A stretch of 64,000 bases of DNA, from NCBI GenBank assembly GCA_028711995.1, contig JAQTRE010000002.1, forward strand, positions 1,704 through 65,703, given 5' to 3'. This DNA comes from Dehalococcoidia bacterium. Lineage in GTDB: Bacteria; Chloroflexota; Dehalococcoidia; SZUA-161; SpSt-899. Positions within the stretch are counted from its first letter, which is position 1, and each line of letters opens with the position of its first letter. The notes under the pieces were generated by a model that was not told the DNA's origin, searched no databases, and saw nothing but the letters and a program-made list of their open reading frames with translations. Shown piece after piece: positions 4,892 through 39,939 of this stretch. Made by a program: the position numbers and the translations under genes.

Positions 4892-4902
4892 AAATTAAAA
4901 AC

Positions 4903-5460: not shown

Positions 5461-5480
5461 GCGATGTATTCTTGCACAGT

Positions 5481-5618: not shown

Positions 5619-5644
5619 TTCTCTTGTCCTTAAATACGTAGCGT

Positions 5645-5674
5645 ATTATACCCTTATATGAGTTCTCTTGGCAA
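5645..5674 (-). promoter_or_regulatory. Candidate sigma-70 promoter for the rpmH-rnpA-yidD-yidC-jag operon
   Basis: On the minus strand: TTGCCA (-35), 18 nt, TATAAT (-10; the plus strand reads attata at 5645-5650). The -35 lies in the loop of an 8-bp hairpin (gagttctc/gagaactc, 5660-5687) that may also terminate gyrB. Confidence 0.45.
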
Positions 5675-5703
5675 CCAATGAGAACTCAGTTCTTCATCAG
5701 TCT

Positions 5704-7695
<1,992 letters not shown>

Positions 7696-17920: not shown

Positions 17921-17967
17921 TGAAGCAGTGTTTGGCTTTTTCAATTCTGTTTCTCAGGGAGGGAAAA

Positions 17968-19059
17968 ATGGAAATCAATGAACTACTGCGTTTGGCGGAT
18001 CAGAAGAATGCCTCAGACCTTCACCTCATGGTCGGAGTCCGTCCGGCGCTGAGGGTCGACGGACAGTTGATAAATATTCAATGTGAGCCGATTACTCCTG
18101 CTGAGCTGATACAGGCTTTCAATTCGGTGACAGATGAGAATCAGCAGAGCACATTCTCTCGCGATTTGGAGCTGGATTTTGCCTATACTGTCCCACATGG
18201 ATCTCGCTTCCGGGCTAATGCTTGCCGGCAGAAGGGAACCATCAGCCTCGTCTTCCGACACCTAGAGTCACCCCCAATCAACATCGAGGCTATCGGTTTG
18301 CCCCTGGTCTGCAGGGACCTGGCCCTCAAACCGAATGGATTGGTGTTGGTAACCGGACCCTCGGGATGCGGCAAATCGACCACGTTAGCAGCAATGATAC
18401 AGCACTTGAATCAAACCAGGGAACGACGAGTTATCACCATTGAGGACCCCATCGAGTATGTTTACGCCAGCGATCGGTGCATGATCTCGCAGCGAGAGGT
18501 GGGATCTGACACCCATTCGTTCGCTCAGGCGCTGAAGCATGTGCTTCGGCAGGACCCGGAAGTCATTCTGGTTGGGGAAATGCGAGATGTTGATACGGCG
18601 ATGATGGTGCTGACGGCCGCGGAGACCGGCCAATTGGTGTTGTCCACGGGGCATGCTTCCAATGCTCCCAGTTCAATTGACAGGATAATTGATCTGTTTC
18701 CCCCGAATCAGCAGATCTTCGCCCAGGCAAGACTGGCCGAGGTGCTTCAAGGAGTATTATCCCAGAGATTGCTGGCTCGTGTGGATGGATCAGGACGAGT
18801 TCCCGCAGTGGAGGTCATGCTGGGAAACCCGGCGGTGAAGAGCCTCATTCGGGAAGGCAAGATACACCAACTAGCCAACGTTATCCGCACCGGTCAGCAA
18901 TTGGGTATGCGGTCTATGGATGAATCTCTGATACACCTTTACGATGCAGGGCTGATAAGCAGAGAGGCGGTATTGACGTACTGTGTGGATTACGGCGAAA
19001 CAGTAAGAATCGTTGGTGAGCCATTGACATCTGGTGTTACCGGGCGATTGCAGCTTTAA
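17968..19059 (+). CDS. pilT: Type IV pilus retraction ATPase PilT. The start is taken at MEINELLRL; the track ORF begins at 17920.
   Basis: Walker A GPTGSGKST-type (here GPSGCGKST), Asp box, Walker B, His box (LVLSTGHA) and the PilT-specific region are all present. An RBS (agggagg) precedes 17968. Confidence 0.85.
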   Translation: MEINELLRLADQKNASDLHLMVGVRPALRVDGQLINIQCEPITPAELIQAFNSVTDENQQSTFSRDLELDFAYTVPHGSRFRANACRQKGTISLVFRHLESPPINIEAIGLPLVCRDLALKPNGLVLVTGPSGCGKSTTLAAMIQHLNQTRERRVITIEDPIEYVYASDRCMISQREVGSDTHSFAQALKHVLRQDPEVILVGEMRDVDTAMMVLTAAETGQLVLSTGHASNAPSSIDRIIDLFPPNQQIFAQARLAEVLQGVLSQRLLARVDGSGRVPAVEVMLGNPAVKSLIREGKIHQLANVIRTGQQLGMRSMDESLIHLYDAGLISREAVLTYCVDYGETVRIVGEPLTSGVTGRLQL

Positions 19060-24544: not shown

Positions 24545-26164
24545 GTGAAAATGGTGGATAAGGTAGGCATGATAAAACTCAGTTTTCAATGGAAGCTGCT
24601 GTCTGTGGGATTGATGAGCATGGTTGCATTTGTGGTATTGTTGCTGGTCGGCGCCGTTCCCGACACAGCTAAGACCACTCTTATGACCATTGGCGGTGCT
24701 TTGGCTGCTGTGTCTCTGATTGCTCTGGTTATTCTCTCGCAATATGCGGGCAAGAATATTAAAGAGTTGGCCAAAACTGCCGATAGGATCAGCCATGGAG
24801 AGTTGGGTTTCAACATTGATCTCAAGTCCAAGGATGAAATAGGAGACCTAGCCACCTCACTGCGGAGTGCCGCCGTATATTTCAAGGAGTTGGCTTCCAC
24901 GGCTGAGAAGGTGGAGGCAGGGGATCTATCTCTGTCATTCACGGCGAAATCCGAGAGAGACGTCCTCGGTAATGCCTTTGCAAACCTGACCAAGTGCTTC
25001 AAAGACATCATCGGCAAAGTGGCCGGTGATGCCAAAGAGATGGATTTAGCTAGTGACCAACTCGCCGCATCGGCCACTCAGGCAGATTCCGCAACGCAAC
25101 AGGTTGCCAGCACCAGTCAGCAGATGGCGAAAGGTGCCAGCGATCAGGCCGCGAGTTGTCAGGAAACAGCCAAGGCGGTAGGTCAATTGACTGAAGTTGT
25201 TGCCCAGATTGCCAAGGGCGCTCAGGAACAGGCCGAGGGAGTCCATAAAGCGACTTCATCCATAGCGGAACTGTCCTCCGGGGCAGATCAGGTAGCGAAG
25301 AATGCCCTTGCTGCTGCCGGGGGATCCAAAGCAGCAACGGAGGCTGCCAACAAGGGTGCGGAACAGGCCAAACAGGCAGTCGAAGGGATGAAACGAGTCA
25401 GAAACAGTGTGGAAGCAGCCTCGCAGAAGGTTTCCGATCTGGGGCAGAAGTCCGAGGCGATCGGCAAAATTGTAGCGGTGATCGATGATATTGCCGCCCA
25501 GACCAATCTTCTGGCGCTGAATGCCGCCATCGAGGCGGCTCGGGCCGGAGAACATGGGCGGGGATTTGCGGTTGTGTCCGATGAAGTCAGGAAGCTGGCA
25601 GAGCGGACGGCCCAGGCCACCAAGGAGATTGCCGATCTCATCAGCAACGTGCAAAAGGGTGTGGGAGAGGCAGTGAAAGCGATGCAAGAGGGGACCAATG
25701 AGGTGAACGGAGGGTACAAACTGACCAGCGAGGCGGGCGAATCTCTGGAAGATATTCTGAAAGCGTCGACGGAAGTCAGTGTGCAAATCGAACAGATATC
25801 GGCTGCGGCCCAGCAGATGAGCGCCTCTGCCAATGAGATGGTAACCATCATCGATAGTGTTGGGAGCGTTACGGAAGAGAACACGGCAGCGGCCGAAGAG
25901 ATGTCCGCGAATGCGCAGCAGGTGAGCAATTTGATCGAAACAGTCGCCGGGGTGGCAGAGGAGAACAGCGCCGCAACCCAGCAGGTGTCGGCTTCCGCCG
26001 AAGAGATGAGTGCTCAGATGCAGGAAGTGGTGGCCTCATCCCAGTCGCTGAAGCAAATGGCTGAAGCGTTCATGATATTGATGTCCCTTTTCGGGAGCAC
26101 TGATGATGAGGGCGACTCACAGGAGACCGAACCTGAGCGTGACAAAGTGCTGGTTGGAGCCTAA
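24545..26164 (+). CDS. Methyl-accepting chemotaxis protein (539 aa: two TM helices with a minimal loop, HAMP, MA signalling domain)
   Basis: The highly conserved MCP signature …[39 protein letters not shown]… is present. Confidence 0.9.
25050..26075 (+). repeat. Paralogous repeat: the MCP1 signalling-domain coding DNA is highly similar to 27625-28655 in MCP2
   Basis: Long stretches are near-identical by eye. For example, 25441-25640 versus 28020-28220 differ only by scattered third-position changes, as do 25790-26070 versus 28370-28650. Confidence 0.8.
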
Positions 26165-26266: not shown

Positions 26267-28741
26267 GTGGGAAAGTTAATTAATCTGAAATGGCGGCCGA
26301 AATTGGGCGCTAAGCTGCAAAGGTTGACAACGCTTAACCTCGGACCGAAGTTGCTTATCGGTTTCCTGGTGGTTGTAGCCATGACCGGGGCTACGGGTTT
26401 TATCGGCATGCGGGGGATTTCTGGTGTAGCTGATGCTTCGCAAAGTGCCGATGAGGCCAATCTGACCGTGCAAAAGGTGCTGGAAATCAGGCAAGCGGAA
26501 AGGGAGTATGTGCAAACTGGGGATGATCGCTATCTTGTCCGGATTGATGCCATATTGGCTGACGCGAAGAATCTCATCGCAACGATGAAGGAATCGTCTG
26601 GAGGAGAGAACCTCGCCCTTCTCAATGTAATGGAGGCCCAGTTTGATAGCTACAGGCAATCAAAAGATGCCTATGCTGGTCTTATGAGCGCAGGAGCTGC
26701 GAAGCAACTTCAAATGGAAGAGGTGTCTGTTGCCGCCCAAAACGAGGTCAAAGATATGACAGGACAGCTGGAAGCACGGGCGCTTAGCGATGTTACCACG
26801 CTGTCAGTCTTCGTGGAGGGATCGTACGACACCAGTTCAATGGACGCTTCCGGAAAACTCAGCGTGCTAAACAGTGCTAACCGCCTCATGCGAAACATCC
26901 AGTATCTCAGAATGGCCGAGAAAGACTATCTGCTTAGCCATGATAAGAACTATTCTGATGAGTTCATGGTGCAGATATGGACTGCGCAGAGTGTGGTGAA
27001 CTATGATCTCGAGGCGAGCGTTGGCGATCTGATCGATCGGGCGCAAGCAGATGCGATCTTAAAGTCTCTGGATGCATATCAAGCTGCATTTGAGGCATAC
27101 GTCGATTTAGATCAGCAGAAAGAGGCTCAACTCTTGGTGATGATAGAAGCCGGAAATGTATTGATCGGCAGTCCGGATAAAGATAGCCAATACTACGGCG
27201 GGGCAGAATTACTGAAGGCAAAGGCTCAAGACGACTCCGAATCTGCCAAGAGTCTAGCCATCATGATGACATTGGCCTTCATAGGCGGCTCGATAATGAT
27301 AGGTATTGTTCTTGCCATCGTCATTTCCCGCTCAATCACCAAAAAGGTCCGGTTGATAGCGGAGAGGGCGGATGAATTTGCCACCGATCTCGAGGGGCTA
27401 TACGGCACCATGCAATCAGCTGCCCAGGGAGATCTCTCCGAGAAAGTTCGGATCAACACACAGGAGATGCCTATAACCTCGCGTGACGAAATCGGCGTTA
27501 CCATGACGTCTCTGAATAGAATGATTGCCAATTTGCACAACACTGGCGATGCCTTCGAAAACATGATGGTCAATCTGCGAGACTTGATTGCCAAGGTAAC
27601 GGACAACTCGACACAGTTGAATGCAGCCAGCGATCAACTTGCTGCATCGTCAACGCAGGTAGGTTCTGCCACCCAACAGGTGGCCAGCACCAGCCAGCAG
27701 ATGGCCACCGGAGCCAGCGATCAGGCTGCAGCCTGCCAGGAAACGGCCAAGGCAGTAGGGCAACTGACCGAGGTTGTCGCACAGATAGCAAATAGCGCTC
27801 AAAAGCAATCGCAGGGAGTTCAGGCGGCAATCACTTCGATCACCGAGTTGTCAACCGGAGCGGAGCAAGTGGCAAGCAGTGCCGCTTTTGCCGCCAGGAC
27901 GGCAAAAGGTGCGGCCGAAGGAGCGCAGAAATTCACGGAGACGTCAAAGCAGGGGGGAGATCGGATGAAACTGATCATGACCGCGGTCGAAACAGCCTCG
28001 CAGAAGGTTTCCGAACTGGGACAGAAGTCCGAGGCGATCGGCAAGATTGTGGCCGTGATCGATGATATCGCCGCCCAAACCAATCTACTGGCGTTAAATG
28101 CAGCCATCGAGGCGGCGCGGGCAGGAGAACATGGTCGGGGATTTGCGGTGGTATCTGATGAAGTAAGAAAACTGGCAGAGCGGACAGCCCAGGCTACCAA
28201 GGAGATTGCCGAGCTGATCAGCTATGCGCAAAGGGGTGTGGCAGAGGCAGTAAAGGCGATGGAAGAAGGCCGGAAAGAGATGAAGGGTAACTATAAAGGG
28301 ATCGCCGAATCCAAAGCATCCCTTCAGACTGTCCTGAATGCAAACTCGGAGCTTGGTGTGCAGATCGAACAGATATCGGCCGCGGCCCAGCAGATGAGCG
28401 CCTCTGCCAATGAAATGGTAACCATCATCGATAGTGTGGGGAAGGTTACGAAAGAGAATACCGCGGCGGCCGAAGAGATGTCGGCCAATGCTCAGCAGGT
28501 GAGCAATCTGATCGAAACAGTTGCCGGAGTGGCTGAGGAGAACAGTGCCGCGACCCAGGAAGTATCGGCTTCCGCCGAAGAGATGAGCGCCCAAATGCAG
28601 GAAGTGGTAGCGTCATCCCAATCACTGAAGCTAATGGCTGAGGAACTCCTGACGAAGGTCTCCGTTTTCAAAACGGGCGGCAACAGATATAGCGATCAGG
28701 GAAATGAGCTTGATCGTGAGAAGGTGTTGGTTAATAGCTAA
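26267..28741 (+). CDS. Methyl-accepting chemotaxis protein (824 aa: ~290-aa periplasmic helical sensor domain, TM, HAMP, MA domain)
   Basis: It has the same MCP signature, and its cytoplasmic domain is near-identical to the upstream MCP. Confidence 0.9.
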
Positions 28742-28859
28742 AGATGATGTGAAGGAAGAGGGACTAAGGAAAAACTCTTTCCCCCCAACTGGGCAGAAAC
28801 TTTGTGATAGCCAATAGAGCGGTGAGTTGACCGGGTGAAACAAGTGGAGGGCAATTGAT

Positions 28860-29363
28860 ATGAGCAGCGATGCAGGGAAGAAGCAGGCTGAGAGACAACT
28901 GGTGATCTTCAGCCTGGCCAATGAATCCTACGGGGTGGATATCGGCACGGTGAATGAAATCATCCGCATACAGGAGATATCAAGGGTGCCCAGAACTCCG
29001 GCATACGTGCAGGGAGTGATCAATCTCAGGGGCAGGGTTATCCCGGTGGTTGACTTGCACAAGGTTTTCGATTTTGCCGACAGAGAGACAACAAAAGAGA
29101 GCCGCATTATCGTGGTGGATATTCTGGAACAACAAGTGGGCATAATGGTTGACGCGGTGACGGAGGTGTTACGCATCTCTGCCGATTCTGTCGAGCCTCC
29201 CTCGTCGATGATTGCTACGGGTGATTCGGATTATCTGCTGGGGATAGCCAAAGTCGGACAGAGGCTGATCACTCTTTTGGACCTGGCAAAGGTGTTCACA
29301 AGAGATCAGGCTGAGAAGCTTGAAGAAGTGGAACTTGCTGCGATCGGCGCCGCCGCAGGGTGA
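28860..29363 (+). CDS. cheW: Chemotaxis coupling protein CheW
   Basis: 167 aa with a CheW-like fold (…FSLANESYGVDIGTVNEIIRI…VINLRGRVIPVVDL…). Confidence 0.9.
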   Translation: MSSDAGKKQAERQLVIFSLANESYGVDIGTVNEIIRIQEISRVPRTPAYVQGVINLRGRVIPVVDLHKVFDFADRETTKESRIIVVDILEQQVGIMVDAVTEVLRISADSVEPPSSMIATGDSDYLLGIAKVGQRLITLLDLAKVFTRDQAEKLEEVELAAIGAAAG

Positions 29364-29543
29364 AACGGCTACGCAGAATTCTAGAGGCCATGCATTGAGA
29401 GAAAGGGGCCTATCTGGTTATCGATAACCATCGATAAGGAAGGAACCCTGAGAATTGCCGAAAAACCGGTCACTGGATTATTGATCGGCTTGAAGCAATG
29501 GTGAATCGTAATCCCTCACTATCGCTTTGTGAGGAGGCTGGGA

Positions 29544-29933
29544 ATGAATCGGAAAGTATTGGTAGTTGACGATGACCCAACTATGCTCAAGACTGTGAAG
29601 GCAATCCTGAGCAGTAATGGCTTTGCGGTGACCACTGCCGCGGGGGGGCAACAGTGTCTTGCGGAGCTGAAAATGGGGTTCAAAGGGGTAATCCTTATGG
29701 ATGTAATGATGCCTGATATGGATGGGTGGGCCACTATCAGAGAGATCGTCAACCGTGGACTTCTGGAGGGAAATGTGATCACCATGTTGACTGCAAAACA
29801 TACTCCAGATACAGAGATGGAAGAGCTTGCCGAGTGCGTTCTGAACTACATCAGAAAGCCGTTTGAACTCCGCGAACTCAATTCAGTTGTGGAGGAATGC
29901 AGTTCTTATTTGGAATCACTGGAGAGTATTTAA
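29544..29933 (+). CDS. Stand-alone response-regulator receiver domain. It looks like the REC half of a split CheB. The start is at MNRKVLVVDDDP; the track ORF begins at 29529.
   Basis: The REC acid pocket DDD is present, along with the phospho-acceptor Asp in the LMDVMMP context and the K near the C-terminus. Its C-terminus overlaps the following methylesterase ORF in another frame. Confidence 0.75.
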   Translation: MNRKVLVVDDDPTMLKTVKAILSSNGFAVTTAAGGQQCLAELKMGFKGVILMDVMMPDMDGWATIREIVNRGLLEGNVITMLTAKHTPDTEMEELAECVLNYIRKPFELRELNSVVEECSSYLESLESI

Positions 29934-29965
29934 CCGGCCGCCTGCTGGCTGATCTAGGAGCAGAA

Positions 29966-30565
29966 GTGGAGTTTTCAAAAAACATCATCATAATCGGTTC
30001 TTCTAGCGGGGGACCTCTGACTTTGAGGAGGGTGTTGGCCAAGTTGCCGGTGCTCGATGCTTCCATCCTCATTGTTCAGCACATGCCCAAGTTTATCAAT
30101 GACACCATCAGAGAGTCTCTGTCACGAATGACGGATATGCGTGTCAGATTAGCAGAGGACAGGGCCATGTTGGAAGACGGGAAAGTCTTTGTCGCTCCCA
30201 GCGAAGTGCATATGGAGATAGAGGATAACCGAAGGATCAGGCTGCGTCAAAGCGAAAGGGTCAACTTTGTGTGCCCGTCGATAGACGTTACGATGCAGTC
30301 TATCAGACACGAACCTGGGTTGTCCACTGTCGGCGTCATTCTAACCGGCATAGGTCGAGATGGAGCACAGGGAATCAGCCATATCAAATGTTTGGGAGGC
30401 ACAACCATCGCACAGGATAGCAGGACATGCGTCGTATACGGTATGCCCAAGGCAGCCGTTGAGACCGGTAACGTGGACTTTGTGCTGACTCCTGAAGAGA
30501 TACGGGAGAAACTTATTGAGCTGGTAAAAGGATCAAGGGGGAAAAATGGTAACGTTAGCAGCTGA
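29966..30565 (+). CDS. CheB-type methylesterase catalytic domain only. A GTG start with an RBS is proposed; the track ORF begins at 29897 and overlaps the REC gene.
   Basis: IIIIGSSSGGPLTLRRVLAKLP…ILIVQHMP… is the CheB_methylest signature with the catalytic Ser-His-Asp. It is in a different frame from the upstream REC ORF. Confidence 0.7.
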   Translation: MEFSKNIIIIGSSSGGPLTLRRVLAKLPVLDASILIVQHMPKFINDTIRESLSRMTDMRVRLAEDRAMLEDGKVFVAPSEVHMEIEDNRRIRLRQSERVNFVCPSIDVTMQSIRHEPGLSTVGVILTGIGRDGAQGISHIKCLGGTTIAQDSRTCVVYGMPKAAVETGNVDFVLTPEEIREKLIELVKGSRGKNGNVSS

Positions 30566-32675
30566 TGTGACACCGGAAGAATTGCAGGTGTTTCTGCAAG
30601 ACACAGATGAACAATTGCAGGTCCTGGATGAAGATATCATCAAGCTGGAGAATGAAGGGGATAACCCGGAGGTGTTGCAGGAGATTTTCCGCGCCGCTCA
30701 TACGATAAAGGGATCCTCCGCCATGGTCGGTTATCACAAGATGGCCGATCTGACTCATGCCATGGAGAGCATACTGGACAAGCTGAGGAAAGGCACGCTA
30801 TCGGTCAATACCCAGATAGCCAATGCTCTTTTGCATAGCCTGGATAGTCTCCGAGTGCTGCGGAATAATCTGACCGCTAAGAAGGAAGAGAATATTGACG
30901 TCGATTCTGTCATTGCGACACTAAAAGAGCTCACCAGCGCTGAAGCGAAGCTCGCACAGGCCGGGAAGTCGGATCAGGAGACGCCCACAGCGGTGAGGAT
31001 ATCCCTGGATAAGAGTGAGTATAAGCGACTTCAGGAATCGCTGGCCTTGAGCCACAGGGTACATCAGATAGAGATGGCAATCAGCAAGGAAAGCCAATGG
31101 GCGGCGGTTCGCTGTCTTCAAGCATTAAACGAGCTGGATGAAAAAGGAATCGTCATTGCATCTAAGCCCTCCCGGAAAGAGATTGAGGCTGAGAAAGTGG
31201 AATCTCAGTTGATATTGATCTTTGCCGGATTGCTGGAGGAAGAAGAAATAAGAGCGCTGCTCTGCACAATATCCGATGTGGAGAATGTAAGAGTTGGTTT
31301 CTACGATCCTGGCGAAGACGGCTGCCCAGGTGAAAAAGCTGTGGAGGATGGGGCCCTTAACGCATTTGATGTAGAGAAGACCGTCAAAACTGATCGCCCG
31401 GCACAATCCCAGTCTTCGGGCGCTCCAGCCGAACGGGCTCCGGTTGAAGCCATTAAAGCAGCTGAGACGGTTCGGATTGATGTGGAACGGCTGGATAGCC
31501 TGATGAACATGATCGGCGAGTTGGTAGTTGCCCGAACCAGGATGAACCAGATCAGCCGGTCGCTGGACCTCAAATATAGAGAGGATGAAGATGTGGTGGC
31601 TCTGAGCAAGACCTTCACCCAGGTCACCAAAGTCATCGATCAGCTTCAACTGGATATCACCGTTGCTCGCATGCTGCCGGTAGGAACAGTGTTCAATCGC
31701 TTCCCTAGGATGGTCAGAGACCTGGCCCAAAAGATGGGGAAAAAGGTTGATTTCATCATCACGGGTCAGGAGACGGGGATTGACCGTTCGGTGATAGAGC
31801 ATATCCGCGACCCGTTGGTGCATTTACTGAGGAATTCGGTCGATCATGGCATCGAGACTTCGGAAAAGCGCGAGGCTGCTGGGAAGCCGGAAAAGGCAAC
31901 CGTTCGGCTTTCAGCAGCTCATGAACAAAATTTCATCATGATCACCGTAGAGGATGACGGCAAGGGAATCGATGGAGCGGTGATCAAAGAGGTTGCTCTC
32001 AAAAAAGGCCTGATAACCGCTGAGGCCGCATCGAGGATGAGTGATGCCGAGGCCATCGATCTCATCTTCGCATCCGGAGTATCAACCGTTGAAAAGGCCA
32101 CCGATGTATCCGGCAGGGGAGTGGGAATGGATATCGTGCGCAAGAATATTGAAGCGTTCAACGGCGTCATTTCTGTGGAGACGAAAGTGGGCCAGGGCAC
32201 CAAGTTTGTATTGAGGTTACCGCTTACCCTGGCAACCATTAATGCGCTGCTGGTTTCCTCTGGCAATACGATTTATGCCATTCCTCTGGTCACCATCAGC
32301 GAAACACTGAGACTCAGCCCGAAAGATATTAAGACGGCTGCTCAAAGGGAGGTGTTCAGCCTCAGGGACAGAGTGGTGCCGTTAATTAGACTGAACGAGG
32401 TATTTGATACGGATATAGAGGAATCCACTGACGCGGAAATGGTTCACATCGTTGTGGCCCGCGTCGGCGAGCGAATGGTGGGACTTTCAGTGGATTCTTT
32501 GATAGAGCCTCAGGAAGTGGTGGTAAAGTCTATGGGCAGCTTCATCGGCAACGTCCACGGCATAGCCGGAGCCACCATTCTTGGCAGCGGAGAAGTGGCA
32601 CTGATATTGGATGTGCCCAGTTTGATAAAGTCTTGCAGCGAATCGATGAAGTTTGGCGGGCAATCCATGAACTAG
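30546..32675 (+). CDS. cheA: Chemotaxis histidine kinase CheA (709 aa: Hpt, dimerisation, HATPase and CheW-like domains)
   Basis: The Hpt phosphorylation site is AAHTIKGSSAMVGY, the HATPase_c G-boxes are present (…GRGVGMDIV…), and the C-terminal CheW-like domain is intact. Confidence 0.9.
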   Translation: MVTLAADVTPEELQVFLQDTDEQLQVLDEDIIKLENEGDNPEVLQEIFRAAHTIKGSSAMVGYHKMADLTHAMESILDKLRKGTLSVNTQIANALLHSLDSLRVLRNNLTAKKEENIDVDSVIATLKELTSAEAKLAQAGKSDQETPTAVRISLDKSEYKRLQESLALSHRVHQIEMAISKESQWAAVRCLQALNELDEKGIVIASKPSRKEIEAEKVESQLILIFAGLLEEEEIRALLCTISDVENVRVGFYDPGEDGCPGEKAVEDGALNAFDVEKTVKTDRPAQSQSSGAPAERAPVEAIKAAETVRIDVERLDSLMNMIGELVVARTRMNQISRSLDLKYREDEDVVALSKTFTQVTKVIDQLQLDITVARMLPVGTVFNRFPRMVRDLAQKMGKKVDFIITGQETGIDRSVIEHIRDPLVHLLRNSVDHGIETSEKREAAGKPEKATVRLSAAHEQNFIMITVEDDGKGIDGAVIKEVALKKGLITAEAASRMSDAEAIDLIFASGVSTVEKATDVSGRGVGMDIVRKNIEAFNGVISVETKVGQGTKFVLRLPLTLATINALLVSSGNTIYAIPLVTISETLRLSPKDIKTAAQREVFSLRDRVVPLIRLNEVFDTDIEESTDAEMVHIVVARVGERMVGLSVDSLIEPQEVVVKSMGSFIGNVHGIAGATILGSGEVALILDVPSLIKSCSESMKFGGQSMN

Positions 32676-32745
32676 CAACGAGAAAAGGCAAGACAGAAGA
32701 CCTGGTAGATATTGATTATGCGCGAACACAGGCACTAATAGGAGG

Positions 32746-33393
32746 GTGAAATTGGAGAAAAGCAGCAAATCAGGACTCAAGGAGATTGATGTAGGGAAAT
32801 GGGCGGAACTCGTCGGGCAAGGAACTCAGAATGCGGTCCATGGCCTATCTGGAATGGTCGGGGTGGAGATTAAGACCGTTGCCCTTGATCTTAAAGTAAT
32901 CCCGGCAGCGAAAGCGGCAGATCTGGTTGGCGGGCCGGAGAATGAAGTGGCATCCATCTATTTGATGATCACCGGCGCAGCAACGGGTCATATTATGCTG
33001 ATCTATTCAAAGGAAGTGGCCTTTGGCCTGGTGGATATGCTGATGGGACAGCAGGTCGGAACCACCAAGGAATTGGGTGAGATGGAATCCTCTGCCCTGG
33101 GTGAGATGGGCAATATCACGGGGTCATTTTTCCTCAATTCAGTAGCCGATAACACCGGTCTGCGTCTGATGCCTTCGATACCAACGGTGATGATCGACAT
33201 GGCCGGATCGATCCTTGATTCAGCCGTAGCCGATGTCCTGCAGGATCATGATGAATTATTCGCCATGGAAGCCATCTTTGCCGTTGGAAATCAAGAGATC
33301 AGCGGAACACTCCTGGTTTTACCAACTGCGGAGTTTATGGAGGTTATGGTAGAGCATAGCAAACTGATCCCTAAGAAGGGGGCACAGTGCTAA
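32746..33393 (+). CDS. cheC: CheY-P phosphatase CheC (the start may be the TTG at ~32752)
   Basis: Two CheC-type repeats with E/N-containing active-site helices (…SALGEMGNITGSFFLNSVAD…). Confidence 0.8.
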   Translation: MKLEKSSKSGLKEIDVGKWAELVGQGTQNAVHGLSGMVGVEIKTVALDLKVIPAAKAADLVGGPENEVASIYLMITGAATGHIMLIYSKEVAFGLVDMLMGQQVGTTKELGEMESSALGEMGNITGSFFLNSVADNTGLRLMPSIPTVMIDMAGSILDSAVADVLQDHDELFAMEAIFAVGNQEISGTLLVLPTAEFMEVMVEHSKLIPKKGAQC

Positions 33394-33881
33394 CACTAAC
33401 TCAAGAAAGCACGGTCGTGGTGAGTTTGGGAGAGATCAAGTTGTCTAAGGATCCGCAAACAGTTTTGACGTGTCTGGGCTTGGGGTCGTGTATCGGCCTT
33501 TGTATGTATGACCCTATTGCCGGTGTGGGAGGAATGGCGCACATTGTTCTGCCATTCAGCAACAATGGGGCTGCGGGCAATGCGAAATTCGCCGATATTG
33601 CCATTCCCCAGCTACTTCAAGCAATGAGAGAACATAATGCCGTGAGATCTCGCCTGATCACAAAACTCGCCGGTGGCGCGCAGATGATCAAGCCGGGAAC
33701 GGCGGATAATTTCAATACGGGGCAGAGGAATATCGAGGCGGTCAAACAGATATTGGCAGACGAGGCCATCAGGGTTTCGGCCGCCGAGGTAGGCGGATCT
33801 CGTGGACGTTCACTTAAGTTATTCGTGGGGACTGGCAAGGTGATGGTGAAATCAGTGGGTTCAACAGATGTGGCACTGTAG
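33387..33881 (+). CDS. cheD: Chemoreceptor glutamine deamidase CheD
   Basis: 164 aa containing …LGLGSCIGLCMYD…, the CheD catalytic Cys region. It overlaps the cheC stop, which is typical of cheC-cheD pairs. Confidence 0.85.
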   Translation: MLTLTQESTVVVSLGEIKLSKDPQTVLTCLGLGSCIGLCMYDPIAGVGGMAHIVLPFSNNGAAGNAKFADIAIPQLLQAMREHNAVRSRLITKLAGGAQMIKPGTADNFNTGQRNIEAVKQILADEAIRVSAAEVGGSRGRSLKLFVGTGKVMVKSVGSTDVAL

Positions 33882-33908
33882 GCCCGAAGAAGGAAACAAG
33901 GAGAATAA

Positions 33909-34268
33909 ATGATGGCGAAAATATTAGTTGTAGATGATGCCCCCTTCATGCGCATGAGGGCCAGTAAATTATTGAGCGAGAATGGATTCCAGGTGATCGA
34001 GGCCGGAAACGGCGCCGAAGCGGTGAAGAAGTACAAAGATGAAAAGCCCGATGCGGTGATGATGGATATCACCATGCCTGAGATGGATGGGTTGCAGGCG
34101 TTGAAGGAGATGAGAAAGCTGGACCCGAATGCTAAGGTGTGCATGGTCACGGCCATGGGACAACAATCTATTGTGTTGGAAGCCATAAGCGCCGGAGCTA
34201 AGGACTTTGTGGTGAAGCCCTTTGATGCCAACCGGGTTCTGGCGACGGTTCAAAAGATGGTGAGCTAG
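33909..34268 (+). CDS. cheY: Chemotaxis response regulator CheY
   Basis: 119 aa single-REC protein with VVDDAPFMR, the phospho-acceptor Asp in the MMDITMPEMDG context, and the K at the KPF motif. Confidence 0.9.
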   Translation: MMAKILVVDDAPFMRMRASKLLSENGFQVIEAGNGAEAVKKYKDEKPDAVMMDITMPEMDGLQALKEMRKLDPNAKVCMVTAMGQQSIVLEAISAGAKDFVVKPFDANRVLATVQKMVS

Positions 34269-34391
34269 GAAACCTGTGATTAAGTGGTGCAGAACACCTC
34301 CTGCCGGGAATCCGGGGGTGCCCAACACTTGATGGCGCTTGCCTAGGGAAGCGCCATCAACACACAGGAATTCTGAAGAAAGGAACCTGCC

Positions 34392-35471
34392 ATGAGCAAT
34401 AGCATTAGCGTGCTGATAGTGGATGATTCTGCCTTTGCCAGGTTTGCTATTTCCAAGCAGATTGGCGCTCATCCGGAGATGAAGGTCATAGGTACTGCTC
34501 GCGATGGGATTGATGCCCTGGAGAAAATCAAGCAATTGAAACCGGATGTGGTGACACTCGATGTGGAAATGCCGAAGATGGATGGCTTGGCGGTACTCAA
34601 ACATGTCATGTCAGAGTATCCCACACCGGTGATCATGCTCAGCAGTCTGACCAGTGAGGGTGCGGAGACAACACTGAAGGCGCTGGATATGGGAGCTGTT
34701 GATTTCTTCCTTAAGCCTTCCTCGGCGGCACCGGCAGGGCTATCGCCCGAAATGGTGAACGATTTGGTAACCAAAATAAGGATGGCTGCCAAAACCGATG
34801 TGTCACGCATGAAGACGATTGCCACCGTCCCGAGAAAAAGTCAGGCGATGGAGAAGAAAGCACGCAAACCTCGTGCCAGTATACAGAATAAAGTGATCGT
34901 TCTCGGGTGCTCAACCGGAGGCCCGCGAGCATTGCACAGGGTGATTCCTTCGCTGCCCGGAGATTTGCCAGCAGCCATGCTGGTAGTGCAACATATGCCG
35001 CCGGGATTCACCAAGTCATTGGCCAATAGGCTGAACGACTTGTCGGAGGTGGAAGTCCGAGAGGCTCAGGAGGGAGATGCCCTCAAGCCCGGTCTGGTAT
35101 TACTAGCTCCCGGCGGCAGCCATATGACGGTGAATGAAGGTGGCCGGGTGAGCCTCAATCAGGGCCCGATGGAGTGTGGGCTGCGGCCTGCAGCCAATGT
35201 GACCATGGAGTCGGTGGCTAAGGCTTATCAAAAGACTGCTCTCGGTGTAGTGCTCACCGGCATGGGAAATGATGGTACCAGGGGGGCGGGTCTCATTAAA
35301 AAGTTCGGCGGTGAAGTGGTGGTGGAGGACGAATCTACCTGTGTGGTCTACGGAATGCCCAAAAGCATTGTTGATGCCGGGTATGCCGACAGAGTTTTGC
35401 CATTATCGCAGATAGCAGGTGAGATCACCAAAAGATGCCATGTAAATCTCGAAATGGCCCTTGAGGTATGA
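34392..35471 (+). CDS. cheB: Protein-glutamate methylesterase CheB (intact REC + methylesterase, 359 aa)
   Basis: An N-terminal REC (LIVDDSAF…LDVEMPKMDG) is followed by a methylesterase domain (…VIVLGCSTGGPRAL…LVVQHMP…). Confidence 0.9.
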   Translation: MSNSISVLIVDDSAFARFAISKQIGAHPEMKVIGTARDGIDALEKIKQLKPDVVTLDVEMPKMDGLAVLKHVMSEYPTPVIMLSSLTSEGAETTLKALDMGAVDFFLKPSSAAPAGLSPEMVNDLVTKIRMAAKTDVSRMKTIATVPRKSQAMEKKARKPRASIQNKVIVLGCSTGGPRALHRVIPSLPGDLPAAMLVVQHMPPGFTKSLANRLNDLSEVEVREAQEGDALKPGLVLLAPGGSHMTVNEGGRVSLNQGPMECGLRPAANVTMESVAKAYQKTALGVVLTGMGNDGTRGAGLIKKFGGEVVVEDESTCVVYGMPKSIVDAGYADRVLPLSQIAGEITKRCHVNLEMALEV

Positions 35472-35474
35472 ACT

Positions 35475-36311
35475 ATGGATGATGTGGAATACGGTTATCT
35501 GAAAAAGAAAGTGCTGGATCTGATTGATATCGATCTGGATAGCTATAAGGAAAAACAGATGCGTCGGCGGTTGGCCGGATTTCTGGAGCGATCCGGTGCC
35601 CCCAACCCCGCAGCCTACGTCAGCCGCGTCGAGCAGGATCAGCGGATGTTGGATGAATTACGGGATTTCCTGACGATAAACGTGTCCTCATTCTTCCGTG
35701 ACGAAACGCAGTTTGAGAAGCTCCAGACAACGATACTGCCTGAATTGCTGGGCCACAGCCACCGTCTCAATATCTGGAGTGCCGGCTGTTCCAATGGCTC
35801 TGAGCCCTATACAATGGCCATGATTCTAGGCGAACTCGCTGCCAAGCAGGAACACCGGATACTCGCTACGGATATAGATAAGACCATCATCGCGCGGGCG
35901 CAAGGCGGTGGGCCTTACACCGCAGCTGACGTTAAAACCGTGCCGCCAAACCTTCGGGACAGATACTTCAAGGAATCGGCAGGCGCCTATTGGGTGGTTG
36001 ATAGTATCAAGAAGAAGGTAGAGTTCAGGCAACATAACTTGCTGGCCGATCCATATGAAAATGGTTTCGACCTAATTCTGTGCCGCAATGTGATGATCTA
36101 TTTTACAGACGGAGCCAAGGATAAGATCATCACGCGATTCTCGAACTCACTGAAAGATCAAGGAGTTCTGTTCCTCGGAGGGAGCGAAATCGTCTTCCGC
36201 CCGGCAGAGATGGGGCTTAAGACTTTGTCCCCCTCCCTCTATCGTAAGACAATGATCTCTGGCAGCACTGGTGGCCAGTCTTTCTGGGGGCAGAAAACCT
36301 TTAAAGAATAA
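35475..36311 (+). CDS. cheR: Chemotaxis protein methyltransferase CheR
   Basis: A CheR N-terminal helical domain is followed by a SAM-MTase domain (…TINVSSFFRD…NIWSAGCSNGSEPYTMAMIL…). Confidence 0.9.
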   Translation: MDDVEYGYLKKKVLDLIDIDLDSYKEKQMRRRLAGFLERSGAPNPAAYVSRVEQDQRMLDELRDFLTINVSSFFRDETQFEKLQTTILPELLGHSHRLNIWSAGCSNGSEPYTMAMILGELAAKQEHRILATDIDKTIIARAQGGGPYTAADVKTVPPNLRDRYFKESAGAYWVVDSIKKKVEFRQHNLLADPYENGFDLILCRNVMIYFTDGAKDKIITRFSNSLKDQGVLFLGGSEIVFRPAEMGLKTLSPSLYRKTMISGSTGGQSFWGQKTFKE

Positions 36312-36334
36312 TGGCTCAATAAGGGGAAAATATC

Positions 36335-37435
36335 ATGCGTCGCATATCGGTTAAATACGCTCAACCCGAAATGGAGCTGGCAAAGCCTCTTTTTGATAAA
36401 TGGGGCAATATGCTGTTACCCATTGGCGCCAAACTGACGGAACGACAGCTGCGGTTATTGCCGAACAAGGGTGTAAGGGAATTATCCATTGAAGACTCGC
36501 GAGTCGATGATGTGCTTTGGGACCCACTTATAAAGCCGGAGACGCAGCAAGAAGCAGTCAAGGCAATCAGCGATCTGTTGACCATAAACCAGAAGGGTGG
36601 AGGGATCAAAAGTCCCAAGGACCCGAGAATGGTCTCCGCTCGACTGAACATCGAGAAAATGAGCTATATGATCACGCAAGAGGTTTTGACATCAGTTATG
36701 GGGGAGCCGGATCTCTCTGGCTGTCAATCCATCGAAGATTATCATTGCATTCAACCTGTGCAATCTACCATCCTGGCAGTGATGCTGGCAAAGGAGGCCG
36801 GCTTCAACGAAGGGGATATGCTGAGCGTGGCCAAAGCCGCCATGCTGCAGAACATTGGTTATACCTTTCTGCCTCAGGAGATATTGAGAAAAGAAACGGA
36901 GCTATCACCAGAGGAGACTCTGGAATTTGAAAAACATCCCATATATGGTGCTGAAATCCTCCGTCAGACCGGCCAGACTTCTCCTCAGATCATCGAAGCA
37001 GTACTGCAACATGAGGAACGGTGGAACGGGAGTGGTTATCCTAACAAGATAAGGGGCTGGGATATATCCCCATTTGCCCAGATTATAGGGATTGCACATA
37101 CCTACTACGATCTTGTGTCGGCGAGACCATGGAGGGAGCCATTCAAGCAAATGGATGCGTTTGAGTACATCATGGCATACGGGGGAGAGCTTTTCGATCC
37201 GGAATGGGTGCAGGTCTTCTCGCGTCGCGTTCCCATCTACCCCAGCGGGGTGAAGGTGAAATTGAGCACAGGGGAGATCGGAATCATTTCTGATGCCAAC
37301 CTCGGACATATCGGCAGACCGATGGTGCGGATCATCTCTGATAGTAAAGGCAATGATGTCAGCCGCCCATACGATATGGACCTCTCGAAGCCAAGTTATC
37401 AGGATCGACTGGTTATAGAACTCTTAGAGATTTGA
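36335..37435 (+). CDS. DUF3391-like N-terminal domain + HD-GYP-like domain with a degenerate HD dyad (366 aa), paralog 1
   Basis: The N-terminus MRRISVKYAQPEMELAKPLFDKWGNMLLPIGAKLTERQL fits the DUF3391 pattern that commonly precedes HD-GYP domains. The core has …YHCIQPVQSTILAVMLAKEAG… and KAAMLQNIGY where active enzymes have AALLHDIGK. The GYP motif is retained (HEERWNGSGYP). A C-terminal extension of about 100 aa follows. Confidence 0.7.
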   Translation: MRRISVKYAQPEMELAKPLFDKWGNMLLPIGAKLTERQLRLLPNKGVRELSIEDSRVDDVLWDPLIKPETQQEAVKAISDLLTINQKGGGIKSPKDPRMVSARLNIEKMSYMITQEVLTSVMGEPDLSGCQSIEDYHCIQPVQSTILAVMLAKEAGFNEGDMLSVAKAAMLQNIGYTFLPQEILRKETELSPEETLEFEKHPIYGAEILRQTGQTSPQIIEAVLQHEERWNGSGYPNKIRGWDISPFAQIIGIAHTYYDLVSARPWREPFKQMDAFEYIMAYGGELFDPEWVQVFSRRVPIYPSGVKVKLSTGEIGIISDANLGHIGRPMVRIISDSKGNDVSRPYDMDLSKPSYQDRLVIELLEI

Positions 37436-37455
37436 TTGTGGAGCGACATTAAGCG

Positions 37456-37899
37456 ATGACCAAGGGAGTGATTTCACCCGCAAAAACAGAGATCCGGAGA
37501 GCAACGGTACTGGTTGTAGATGATGCTCGCTTTCAGCGCATGAGGTCCGTCAGATTGCTGACCGAAAACGGGTTCCATGTAGTTGAGGCATTGAATGGCA
37601 TCGAAGCCATCAAGCGGTACAAAGAGGAAAAACCTGATGCAGTGATCATGGATATTACCATGCCCGAGATGGATGGATTGGCGACCCTGAAGGAGTTGAT
37701 TAAACTGGATACCGATGCCAAGGTGTGCATTGTCACCGCGATGGGCCAACAGTCCATAGTCATGGAGGCTATCCATGCTGGTGCCAAGGATTTTGTGGTA
37801 AAACCCTGTAGTGATGATCGGGTTCTGGCGGCGGTCAGGAAAATGATCGGCCAGGGTGAACTTCTTCAAAAGGGACAGGTGCAAGCCGCGCAGGAATAA
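37456..37899 (+). CDS. CheY-like single-domain response regulator (147 aa), paralog of cheY at 33909
   Basis: The REC domain is near-identical to CheY over its C-terminal two thirds (…DAVIMDITMPEMDGL…KVCIVTAMGQQSIV…AGAKDFVVKP…). Confidence 0.85.
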   Translation: MTKGVISPAKTEIRRATVLVVDDARFQRMRSVRLLTENGFHVVEALNGIEAIKRYKEEKPDAVIMDITMPEMDGLATLKELIKLDTDAKVCIVTAMGQQSIVMEAIHAGAKDFVVKPCSDDRVLAAVRKMIGQGELLQKGQVQAAQE

Positions 37900-37949
37900 C
37901 GAGTGGATAAGTTTCACCAGTAGGATAAAAAGGGATAAGGAAAGACACC

Positions 37950-39056
37950 ATGCGACGCATATCTGTTGAACACGCAAGACCAGGGATGCAACTGAGCAGC
38001 CCGGTCTTTGACAAATATGGGGACATGCTTTTGCCTGCAGGCACGGAGCTGGTGGACAACTACCTGAAGTCTCTGCAGAACAACGGAGTCTGGGAGCTTC
38101 TGATTGAGGACCCGCGAGTCAGCGATCTGACCATCAAGCCTCTGGTAAAGCTGGACATGCAGAAAGAGGCGGTCGAGGCAATGCGCCGATTGATCAACAT
38201 CAATAAGAACAAAAAAGGTGACCGAAGGAAGAATCTGGATGACGATGATATGTTCGCATCGAGGCTGGAAGTAGAGCGATTGACCTATGCCATAGTCCAG
38301 GCGATCCTTATCTCGCCTTTGGGCGAGCCGGACAGCTCAGGGTGTTTACTGGTGGAGGACTTCCATTATGTCCAACCGGTGCAGAGTACTACCCTGGCCA
38401 TTTTGTTGGCGAGGGAGGTCGGTTTGAGCAATACGGCTTTGCTCAATGTGGGAAAAGCAGCCATGCTGCAGAATATCGGCTATATCTGGCTGTCCTCTCC
38501 GCTGTGGGAAAAGAGGACTCCTCTGACTCAGGCGGAAAATACGGAGTTCGAGAAACATCCCCTATACGGAGCTGAGATTCTCGGCCAGTATGAACGCGTT
38601 CCTCCGGCAGTGGTTGAAGCCGTGGCTCAGCATCACGAGCGGTTTGATGGTACAGGTTATCCCAATGGTGTAAAGGGATGGGATGTATCGCCTCTGGCGC
38701 AGCTCATCAGCATAGCCGAGACCTATTATGGGCTTGTTTCCGCCCGGCCAGGGAAAAAACCTATTATGCCAGCGGATGCTTTTGACTATATTATGGCGGA
38801 GGGAGGGCGGATGTTTGACCCGGAGTTGGTAAAGGTATTTGCCAGAAGGGTTCCTATCTATCCCAGTGGTGTGATGGTTAAGTTAAATTCAGGGGAGACC
38901 GGCATCGTTACTAATGTTAATCTGGGACACATTGGCAGACCAGTGGTACGTGTTGTTAAGGATACCAACGGTAAAGACGTGAATCCCCCTATTGATATGG
39001 ACCTCACCACGCCCGTGTATCAGAGCAAGAAAATAACGGAGTTGCTGGAAATATAA
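37950..39056 (+). CDS. DUF3391-like + degenerate HD-GYP-like protein (368 aa), paralog 2
   Basis: It has the same architecture as 36335-37435 and the same substitution KAAMLQNIGY in place of the HD motif, followed by HHERFDGTGYP. The C-terminal extension is conserved. Confidence 0.7.
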   Translation: MRRISVEHARPGMQLSSPVFDKYGDMLLPAGTELVDNYLKSLQNNGVWELLIEDPRVSDLTIKPLVKLDMQKEAVEAMRRLININKNKKGDRRKNLDDDDMFASRLEVERLTYAIVQAILISPLGEPDSSGCLLVEDFHYVQPVQSTTLAILLAREVGLSNTALLNVGKAAMLQNIGYIWLSSPLWEKRTPLTQAENTEFEKHPLYGAEILGQYERVPPAVVEAVAQHHERFDGTGYPNGVKGWDVSPLAQLISIAETYYGLVSARPGKKPIMPADAFDYIMAEGGRMFDPELVKVFARRVPIYPSGVMVKLNSGETGIVTNVNLGHIGRPVVRVVKDTNGKDVNPPIDMDLTTPVYQSKKITELLEI

Positions 39057-39072
39057 CTTTGGGGAATAAACT

Positions 39073-39939
39073 ATGGCCGATGAAGTACTTTCGCAAGCTC
39101 AAATAGATGCCCTGATATCAAGAAGTGCCTCCCAGAAGGGGGCCGACATGTCTCCTGAGATAGAGGCTCTGCTGACGAAGGGCAGTGAAGCTCCCAGTGA
39201 AGGACTGTTTGCCAAAAGGATAGCCGGAAAGCTGGCCCAAAGTGAAGGCTCTAGCGCGGGTGTTCCTGAAAAGGGCCCAGCCGTTGCGGCACCCCCCGCA
39301 CCGAACACGTCCCCTGATAAAGGCGCTTCAAGTCAGCACGGCACGGCATCGGCTGCAAAGCCCGGTCCAAATGTGGCTCCAAATGCTGCATCGTCTAGCC
39401 CCTCGGGTGAAGTAGCGGCGACGAAAGCAGCGCCAAGGCAGATTGAACCGATGGGATCACCTAGGGCAAAAGGCCCTGGCAATGTTGGATCGGGGCAGGT
39501 GATGGCGAATTCAGATACGGAGAAGGCCATAAAGGCTTTGCAATCAGCAACAGATGCTCTGGCAAGGCGTATGGAGAAAGTTGAGTCCATCGCCGCGCGA
39601 GTGAGTCCTCTGGAAAGCGCTGTGGCCAATGGTGCTCAGCAGCCATCGCAACGGCCCGGACAAGACTCGGCAAAGGTTCGGCAAATGGAGATGGAAATAA
39701 AGAGCCTCAGATCGGAAATCCAAAAGATCACGGCGAGTATGCAGAACATCATGAATGTAACCAGGCAAAAGGAGAGCCAGATGAAGACCATCAACAAGGG
39801 GCTTCACAACAGTTTTGGTTACAATATTCGTGAAACTTTTGAATGCGAACATTGCGGTTCTCAGGGGCATGTTGTGGGACTGGTCAAATGCAGCCGGTGT
39901 GATGAAGAGAGTTGGTGGGGATGGTGGCCTCAGGAGTGA
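39073..39939 (+). CDS. Hypothetical protein (288 aa): N-terminal FliM-like CheY-P-binding peptide, Ala/Pro/Ser-rich disordered linker, coiled coil, C-terminal CxxC-x13-CxxC zinc ribbon
   Basis: The N-terminus MADEVLSQAQIDALISR matches the LSQxxIDALL CheY-docking motif of FliM/FliY N-termini. Residues 40-150 are of low complexity. Heptad-like segments are visible (…KSLRSEIQKITASMQNIM…). The C-terminus reads CEHCGSQGHVVGLVKCSRCDEESWWGWW. Confidence 0.55.
   Translation: MADEVLSQAQIDALISRSASQKGADMSPEIEALLTKGSEAPSEGLFAKRIAGKLAQSEGSSAGVPEKGPAVAAPPAPNTSPDKGASSQHGTASAAKPGPNVAPNAASSSPSGEVAATKAAPRQIEPMGSPRAKGPGNVGSGQVMANSDTEKAIKALQSATDALARRMEKVESIAARVSPLESAVANGAQQPSQRPGQDSAKVRQMEMEIKSLRSEIQKITASMQNIMNVTRQKESQMKTINKGLHNSFGYNIRETFECEHCGSQGHVVGLVKCSRCDEESWWGWWPQE

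Follow-up and report, generated by a model that had tools for sequence, protein, structure and literature searches.

Degenerate HD-GYP proteins and a zinc-ribbon partner with a FliM-like peptide as a candidate output module of a Dehalococcoidia chemosensory operon

What is the role of HD-GYP proteins that have lost their catalytic residues and are encoded directly behind chemotaxis genes? This question was raised by a 64,000-nucleotide stretch of DNA from a Dehalococcoidia bacterium (GenBank assembly GCA_028711995.1, contig JAQTRE010000002.1, positions 1,704 to 65,703 of the forward strand), hereafter termed the window. A co-directional string of genes on its + strand (26267-39939) comprises the che genes, a first HD-GYP-like gene (W1), a cheY gene (CheY2), a second HD-GYP-like gene (W2) and an open reading frame (ORF) of 288 aa, hereafter termed the partner (Table 1). 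It is proposed that the dead HD-GYP proteins W1 and W2, together with the partner, constitute an output module of the F1 chemosensory pathway, possibly one that senses cyclic di-GMP (c-di-GMP); the chances of this proposal being correct were judged to be about even.

W1 and W2 had been described in a first-pass annotation, made from the DNA alone, as paralogs in which the catalytic HD dyad is replaced by QN. Both ORFs were confirmed, and their products are 55% identical from end to end (E = 3e-154). The assumed HD-GYP fold was borne out by matches to Pfam HD_5 (PF13487) of 112.9 bits for W1 (1.8e-32) and 101.8 bits for W2 (4.7e-29), against a cut-off of 27.2 bits. Modelled with AlphaFold2 (AF2) from an alignment of 38 sequences (pLDDT 90, pTM 0.88), W1 showed a beta/alpha domain at residues 1-55, helices up to residue 298 and a five-strand barrel at 307-364; it has the three-dimensional HD-GYP fold, with DvhD as the best structural match. 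The DUF3391 label given earlier to the N-terminal part was not supported, as residues 1-130 of W1 and W2 produced no Pfam match at E <= 10, DUF3391 (PF11871) included, and the full-length scan likewise found no DUF3391. Searches of the N- and C-terminal parts against Pfam and NCBIfam gave nothing usable, the only matches being weak ones to eEFSec RIFT (0.013) and DUF2196 (0.067). Neither a PilZ nor a receiver (REC) domain was detected in W1 or W2 by Pfam. A PilZ-like identity was considered for the C-terminal barrel and found to be unsupported.

In the phmmer alignment to the active enzyme PmGH (PDB 4MCW), 'aamlQNigy' lies on 'aapmHDigk' with zero shift, so the HD dyad is replaced, not displaced. 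The sequence strings first reported were all present, namely KAAMLQNIGY and, in the GYP loop, HHERFDGTGYP...V in W2 and HEERWNGSGYP...I in W1, where the second His has become Glu. To describe the site across the family, 122 members and six canonical relatives were aligned, with positions given in PmGH numbering. At H221, Gln is found in both W1 and W2, and His never occurs in the family (Q 72, M 22, E 20, K 8; n=122). D222 is Asn in both proteins and in 113 of the 122 members; the catalytic K225 is Tyr in both and in 117/122. At D308 both have Tyr, and Asp is found in 0/122, while H189 is Gln in both and His in 74/122. D305 is replaced by His in W1 and Glu in W2 (Asp in 82/122), and H277 is Glu in W1 and His in W2 (His in 118/122). 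The metal ligands left are H250 and H276 in W1, and H250, H276 and H277 in W2. Loss of the metal site in both copies had been deduced from the dyad; the degeneration is wider and also takes in H189, K225 and D308.

In PmGH, substitution of Ala for H189, H221, D222, H250, H276, H277, K225 or D308 abolishes or severely reduces activity (PMC4159591). Since residues that are essential in PmGH have been lost, W1 and W2 are, to judge from sequence, almost certainly not phosphodiesterases. A sequencing error or frameshift as the source of QN was ruled out by its occurrence in both paralogs, by the 122 relatives and by the intact HD-GYP domain of another protein in the window. The presence of this canonical domain indicates that QN is specific to W1 and W2, and neither a sequencing nor a lineage artefact. 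The initial argument for selection on a non-catalytic role, drawn from the two copies, is upheld by the family-wide loss in 122 members.

Conservation was found in other parts of the site. H250, H276, E278 and G284 are invariant across the 122 members; P286 is present in 121, I294 in 116, Y285 in 105 and R314 in 96, and 89 have Arg in place of K317. A retained pocket without its metal ligands is the pattern of DvhD from Desulfovibrio vulgaris (PDB 9RBZ/9RC0), which has SQ for HD, is metal-free and binds c-di-GMP with sub-micromolar affinity without hydrolysis (PMC13090378). The same pattern is seen here. Of the c-di-GMP contacts compared (DvhD Y621, R650, Y652, M646, L577 and K582; PmGH Y285, R314 and K317), R314/R650, L577, the GYP Tyr and, as Arg or Lys, K317 are retained; K582 and Y652 are not. 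DvhD, which is membrane-bound, has a dCache-PAS-HD-GYP architecture and governs an adhesin protease, differs from the soluble three-domain W1 and W2 of a che operon, also in having lost the HH pair (MN) that the W1/W2 family keeps. Because the G-site histidines, the GYP Tyr and the guanine-binding Arg are kept and DvhD provides a precedent, the role of the HD-GYP part is most likely to be non-hydrolytic c-di-GMP binding; by analogy this may be proposed, and it is the weakest step of the reading. PA2572 of Pseudomonas aeruginosa (REC + YN-GYP) is, like W1 and W2, an Asp-to-Asn variant of HD-GYP and has no detectable phosphodiesterase (PDE) activity (PMC3411652). Its functional link to the chemoreceptor-like PA2573 parallels the che link seen here (PMC3411652). 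Unlike W1 and W2, PA2572 has a fused REC domain, interacts with an orphan methyl-accepting chemotaxis protein (MCP), lacks the N- and C-terminal beta domains and an EIDAL zinc-ribbon partner, and regulates virulence, not motility.

The family to which W1 and W2 belong (~360 aa) is uncharacterised and is named in public records only from Dehalococcoidia/Chloroflexota; by clustering, W2 lies nearer than W1 to its main clade. Twenty-one columns are invariant across 38 diverse members, the N- and C-terminal beta domains included, and the same substitutions recur in dozens of clusters at 50% identity. Such conservation shows a presumably dead enzyme fold under strong purifying selection. When 1.84 billion representatives were searched exhaustively with a profile, degenerate sequences filled the first 28 ranks and 57 of the first 150, and canonical 'HHDK...' three-domain proteins dominated from about rank 45, a ranking which points to a modest-sized derived branch of an enzyme family. 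Canonical HD-intact proteins (Bacillota, Desulfosporosinus, Roseburia, an actinomycete, a spirochaete) align with the family over their full length, and the C-terminal motif 'YPxGxxVxLsnGexGvV' is common to both. The C-terminal extension of ~100 aa, which had seemed unassignable, is therefore the beta-barrel domain of HD-intact three-domain HD-GYP proteins, ancestral to the architecture and, like the N-terminal domain, not a novelty of the family. By these alignments, the family is descended from three-domain HD-GYP phosphodiesterases composed of an N-terminal beta domain, an HD-GYP core and a C-terminal beta-barrel. The canonical three-domain proteins of Bacillota, Actinomycetes and Spirochaetes (e.g. 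L008-L014) share domains, linker and barrel with W1 and W2; however, they keep HD, K225 and D308, are presumably active, and are never followed by the zinc-ribbon partner. A scan of genome contigs with the pattern HHExW[DN]G[ST]G found only canonical HD-GYPs among the matches listed, and these were used as a control set.

Twelve members, one each from different sequence clusters or clades, were then viewed on their contigs. The HD-GYP gene, single or in tandem, stood directly after cheR in 11 of the 12 clades, as W1 does in the window, where both this position and the cheY between the copies had been correctly described. The related operons run MCP-CheW-CheA-CheC-CheD-CheY-CheB-CheR, with the degenerate HD-GYP gene at the end; in the twelfth clade (L097) it follows a truncated cheA. 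Among 80 control loci with canonical HD-GYPs, a che core gene of any kind lay <=10 kb away in only seven, and the same arrangement was seen in none.

CheY2 is a single-domain receiver of 147 aa that is 72% identical to CheY1. In all other tandem loci examined no cheY lies between the copies, and directly adjacent copies were seen in L001, L005, L088, L120, L162, L164, L166, L169, L174 and L175. Given its identity to CheY1, the interleaved CheY2 looks like a recent local duplication. In a close relative of the window locus (L099 4504-6580, CheR 66% identical), cheR is followed by a W1-like gene cut down to its first 88 residues (73% identical) and next by the zinc-ribbon gene. The remainder of W1 has been deleted together with cheY2 and W2, and the che genes expected upstream are absent. 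In L096 (7098-7853), and also in L146, a KaiC/ArlH-like ATPase gene (PF06745) lies between cheY and cheB. HD-intact canonical HD-GYP genes were seen in the order MCP-CheW-HD-GYP in an actinomycete metagenome-assembled genome (MAG; L011 6899-11119), and in the order HD-GYP-CheR-CheB-CheY-CheA-CheW-MCP in a Lachnospiraceae MAG (L029 4753-12000). These two loci may hint at an older tie between this enzyme architecture and chemotaxis.

The gene directly after W2 encodes the partner. Residues 6-15 read LSQAQIDALI, and the protein ends in a Cys4 zinc ribbon with the terminal sequence WWGWWP. The AF2 model placed a disordered Pro/Ala/Ser-rich linker in the middle, followed by helices at residues 146-186 and 195-248. 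In 10 of the 12 clades, the HD-GYP gene is immediately followed by a homologous ORF (pairwise blastp E 1e-8 to 1e-25). Throughout the family the N-terminal peptide leads into a Pro/Ala-rich linker, which varies in length and is predicted to be disordered, and then into two long helices and the Cys4 ribbon, the consensus of the last being 'F-C-x2-C-G-x2-G-x8-C-x2-C-G-x-E-x-WWGWWP'. The N-terminal peptides include MADEVLSQAQIDALIS in the window, MAENQVLSQAEIDALLG in L089 and ..VLSQAEIDALF in L094. Homologues are located at L001 11111-11914, L089 11081-11866, L094 11118-11732 and L098 11075-11824. All public names in the family are 'hypothetical protein', and all are from Dehalococcoidia.

The N-terminus of E. 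coli FliM reads MGDSILSQAEIDALLN, with the motif LSQAEIDALL, to which the partner's LSQAQIDALI is nearly identical in both sequence and position. The EIDALL element is the binding site for phosphorylated CheY (CheY-P) on FliM and FliY of the flagellar switch (PMC9126983). Where FliM continues with its middle and FliN domains, the partner continues with disordered linker, coiled coil and zinc ribbon. As neither FliM nor FliMN_C gave a Pfam match, the partner is not a FliM homologue and only the peptide is held in common.

A word-indexed protein search for the partner family, limited by the low-complexity linkers, returned 13 matches. The whole metagenome collection was also scanned for ExWWGWWP, giving 167 stretches, of which 99 were confirmed relatives and 80 of these were taken further. 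Of the 71 partner ORFs whose N-terminus is complete, 58 have an EIDAL-like motif, in most cases with its first residue at positions 6-11. A relaxed form of the motif matched once in the window (39088) and once in the 2.65 M six-frame residues of the control loci. Immediately upstream, a degenerate HD-GYP gene was found in 37 of 42 evaluable metagenome loci and, after clustering at roughly 70% identity, in 24 of 25 evaluable EIDAL-type clusters. The 45 HD-GYP ORFs of these loci had QN (30), KD (7), EN (5), MN (2) or HD (1) at the HD position, the single HD case (L153) being a separate 592-aa gene on the other strand. The median distance between HD-GYP and partner genes was 32 nt, and in 13 of 53 pairs the genes touch or overlap. 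A natural fusion was also found: P0077 (480 aa; L097 10001-11443; GCA_052744475.1) joins a degenerate HD-GYP to a coiled coil and a zinc ribbon with WWGWWP. Taken together, the conserved adjacency, the tight spacing and the fusion speak for joint action of the two proteins in a complex.

P0077 has no EIDAL peptide and adjoins a truncated cheA. The zinc-ribbon WWGWWP domain was also seen with other N-termini (L001 12539-13621; L123 627-1598; L156-L159). In the second paralog of L001 the N-terminus is a transmembrane helix, as it is in L123, where the gene comes right after arlJ; another such N-terminus is a 'HVEYLLRQGKKPKEL' module without an HD-GYP neighbour.

Which motor could such a module serve? 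Archaellin (PF01917), ArlH (KaiC-like, PF06745), ArlI (T2SSE) and ArlJ genes were found <=10 kb from the pair in L005, L088, L089, L094 and L095. Archaellum genes also lie <=10 kb from the pair or adaptor in L130, L133, L136, L143-L146, L149, L153, L161, L164, L168, L169, L173 and L175; of the 11 EIDAL-type clusters with loci >=9 kb, five have them. In L130 and L136 arlJ lies upstream of the pair, and the interval contains no recognised che gene. In L133 (3394-4465), and probably also in L143 (16-1118), the gene directly after CheY encodes a zinc-ribbon protein with an EIDAL variant (LPQAVIDEMF), and a convergent archaellum cluster comes next. ArlC, ArlD and ArlE were not identified by Pfam among the unlabelled ORFs of the archaellum clusters. 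In the related loci, pil genes do not recur next to the family as archaellum genes do; no flagellar genes were seen there, where no search aimed at them was made.

Archaella were transferred to Dehalococcoidia and Anaerolineae, were shown in 2025 to be functional in Chloroflexota bacteria, and are mutually exclusive with flagella in this phylum (PMC12488501). CheF is absent from archaellated Chloroflexota, and 'another protein component' may join chemotaxis to the motor (PMC12488501). A 2026 preprint likewise describes F1 systems that co-occur with archaella in the absence of CheF, the adaptor being unnamed (bioRxiv 10.64898/2026.05.11.724246). Neither source mentions an HD-GYP or EIDAL protein, and full-text literature searches for HD-GYP with archaellum or with Dehalococcoidia gave nothing relevant. 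CheF (DUF439), acting with ArlCDE, has in archaea the role proposed here, that of a CheY-P-to-archaellum-motor adaptor encoded with che genes. It consists of two PH-like domains and a helical C-terminal tail, unrelated in sequence or fold to W1, W2 or the partner, none of which gave a Pfam match to CheF; it is bound by CheY-P near the phosphorylation site of the latter and has no EIDAL peptide (PMC9126983). That the pair is the missing CheY-P-to-archaellum coupler of Chloroflexota, replacing CheF by means of a FliM peptide, a new scaffold and a c-di-GMP input, was postulated tentatively, with somewhat less confidence than the output module as such.

The proposed mechanism would begin with the phosphorylation of CheY by CheA. 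CheY-P would dock on the LSQAEIDAL peptide of the partner, which would be held in complex with the dead HD-GYP protein via its coiled coil and zinc ribbon. The long linker could span the distance from chemosensory machinery to motor, the WWGWWP end possibly being membrane- or motor-proximal. The complex would then alter the rotation or activity of the archaellum, the presumed target in this genome. If the HD-GYP pocket binds c-di-GMP without cleaving it, the chemotaxis output might be gated or biased by this second messenger. The same concept, a c-di-GMP receptor acting on motor or chemotaxis, is known from the YcgR/MotI (PilZ) brakes and from MapZ-CheR; here the predicted receptor has an HD-GYP fold. 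MapZ acts on CheR1, and the position of W1 right after cheR recalls it.

The operon upstream of W1 and the other window features are listed in Table 1. The che labels were taken from the ORF list, with Pfam applied to the REC, CheB-like and CheY ORFs, and the precomputed Pfam labels of related loci show the same order. The lone receiver ORF overlaps the start of the CheB-methylesterase-only ORF (29529-30565, +); the two seem to represent a divided CheB, or a second one, beside the full-length copy. The large GGDEF/HD-GYP protein and the pilT reported earlier are both in the window. The former, a sensor of 1476 aa, has intact GGDEF, HDIGK and HHEWYDGSGYP motifs, from which it follows that the organism uses c-di-GMP; the protein is likely, by these motifs, to be a c-di-GMP source or sink. 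Its gene adjoins a second MCP gene (24545-26164) and is divergent from the che operon. The PilT-like ATPase is preceded by a 190-aa ORF without a Pfam match, the stop of which overlaps the start of the ATPase gene (17348-19059, +); the scanned window ORFs included no further pilus genes. The absence of flagellar genes from the window was confirmed among the ORFs >=150 aa scanned. Near the left end of the window, jag/khpB, yidC and gyrB are grouped (2170-7611, -), and the sign of the GC skew changes from minus to plus at ~24 kb, at the switch in coding strand. The region may be origin-proximal, or the skew may be a mere gene strand bias.

Table 1. Positions of the features discussed, numbered from the first nucleotide of the window
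Feature	Positions	Strand	Basis or remark
W1, degenerate HD-GYP protein, 366 aa	36335-37435	+	HD_5 match
W1 N-terminal beta domain	about 36335-36499	+	
W1 helical linker	36500-36724	+	
W1 HD-GYP core	36725-37228	+	
W1 QN in HD position	36848-36853	+	String KAAMLQNIGY
W1 HEERWNGSGYP	37010-37042	+	
W1 C-terminal five-strand beta-barrel	37229-37432	+	
CheY2, single-domain receiver, between W1 and W2	37456-37899	+	Response_reg 2.7e-28
W2, degenerate HD-GYP protein, 368 aa	37950-39056	+	HD_5, clustering, site table
W2 LQNIGY	38466-38483	+	
W2 HHERFDGTGYP	38631-38663	+	
W2 C-terminal barrel	38853-39053	+	
Partner gene, 288 aa, directly after W2	39073-39939	+	Homologous ORF in related clades; locus tag PHV74_00785
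Partner FliM-like peptide LSQAQIDALI, residues 6-15	39088-39117	+	
Partner Cys4 zinc ribbon, end WWGWWP	39838-39930	+	
MCP	26267-28741	+	F1-like chemosensory operon
CheW	28860-29363	+	F1-like chemosensory operon
REC, lone receiver ORF, 134 aa	29529-29933	+	Pfam
CheB-methylesterase-only ORF, 222 aa	29897-30565	+	Pfam
CheA	30546-32675	+	F1-like chemosensory operon
CheC	32746-33393	+	F1-like chemosensory operon
CheD	33387-33881	+	F1-like chemosensory operon
CheY1	33909-34268	+	Pfam
CheB, full-length	34392-35471	+	F1-like chemosensory operon
CheR	35475-36311	+	Directly upstream of W1
PilT-like T2SSE ATPase, 379 aa	17920-19059	+	Pfam
Cache-HAMP-GAF-PAS-GAF-PAS-GGDEF-HD-GYP (HD_5) sensor, 1476 aa	19087-23517	-	Pfam

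Several observations weigh against the proposed module and its motor. Its functional links are drawn from gene context, motif identity and structure prediction, and AF2 modelled the partner with low confidence (pLDDT 55.8), so that only the secondary-structure layout was used. Of the DvhD contacts, K582 aligns with Thr in W1 and Asn in W2 and is lost, while the aromatic clamp Y652 is Trp in W1, Gly in W2 and variable in the family. The HD-GYP gene is absent from L133, and probably from L143, so the adaptor can do without its HD-GYP partner; given these loci, the zinc-ribbon protein looks like the core element, to which the HD-GYP protein may be a near-constant accessory. No archaellum genes were found among the window ORFs >=150 aa scanned, and about half of the longer related loci have none within 10 kb. 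In Ca. Lucifugimonas, the F1 system lies about 1 Mb from the archaellum (bioRxiv 10.64898/2026.05.11.724246), and by this example their absence from the window is uninformative. Finally, the source names behind the family taxonomy cover a minority of matches.

The strongest rival holds that the HD-GYP fold is ligand-free and acts, like the PH domains of CheF, as a pure scaffold through which the CheY-P-binding partner attaches to the motor (ArlCDE, ArlH or ArlI). The strong synteny, the natural fusion, the invariant residues in all three domains (the N- and C-terminal beta domains included) and the loss of some DvhD contacts would all suit a scaffold, as would the example of PA2572 (YN-GYP), which works via protein contacts with PDE activity undetectable (PMC3411652). 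However, H250, H276, H277, E278, the GYP Tyr, R314 and K317 (as Arg) are nearly invariant without an obvious structural need, and the organism encodes enzymes of c-di-GMP turnover; a pure scaffold was considered fairly unlikely. The first-pass annotation had favoured an RpfG split into separate genes, with CheY2-P directly regulating dead HD-GYP c-di-GMP receptors and a type IV pilus output via pilT and the GGDEF protein. This is suggested by the cheY between the copies, by the PilT-like ATPase and GGDEF/HD-GYP sensor 13-19 kb upstream and by the GYP motif of Xanthomonas RpfG, which contacts GGDEF proteins controlling pilus motility (cited in PMC4159591). The interleaved cheY, however, is peculiar to the window and a 72% identical duplicate of CheY1, tandem copies elsewhere being directly adjacent; the conserved CheY-docking peptide sits on the downstream partner and not on the HD-GYP protein; and archaellum genes, not pil genes, recur beside the family. 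The chemosensory link and the non-flagellar output of the earlier reading are thus retained, its choice of pilT as output is not, and the split RpfG as a whole has a small probability.

Two further explanations fit the residue data less well. If a mononuclear G-site (H250, H276, H277) still hydrolysed c-di-GMP, pGpG, cGAMP or another phosphoester, the proteins could provide a local sink at the chemoreceptor array. Conservation of the three G-site histidines and E278, the His at H189 in 74/122 members and the existence of HD-GYPs with bi-/trinuclear sites and other substrates, e.g. V-cGAP3 (PDB 5Z7C), would be in keeping with residual or altered activity. The four positions at which Ala (H221A, D222A, K225A, D308A) essentially abolishes PmGH activity are nevertheless lost family-wide, W1 further lacks H189, H277 and D305, and none of the metals tested gave activity in DvhD, whose losses are comparable; such an enzyme is improbable. 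The lost catalytic residues, and the 88-aa N-terminal remnant that is all L099 keeps, could also be taken as signs of functionless phosphodiesterase copies decaying into pseudogenes. This is scarcely credible in view of two intact ORFs without frameshift whose products are 55% identical, the 21 invariant columns in 38 members, the recurring substitutions and the conserved synteny.

For the Chloroflexota, the HD-GYP protein and its zinc-ribbon partner provide two concrete candidates for the unnamed adaptor between chemotaxis and archaellum. If the proposal is true, it would reveal how an archaeal motor acquired by transfer came under bacterial signalling, in a chimera that combines a signalling peptide and a second-messenger sensor, both bacterial, with the motor from archaea. 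The family would then represent a second structural class of HD-GYP-based c-di-GMP receptors, after DvhD, and would give the first indication of an archaellum under second-messenger control.

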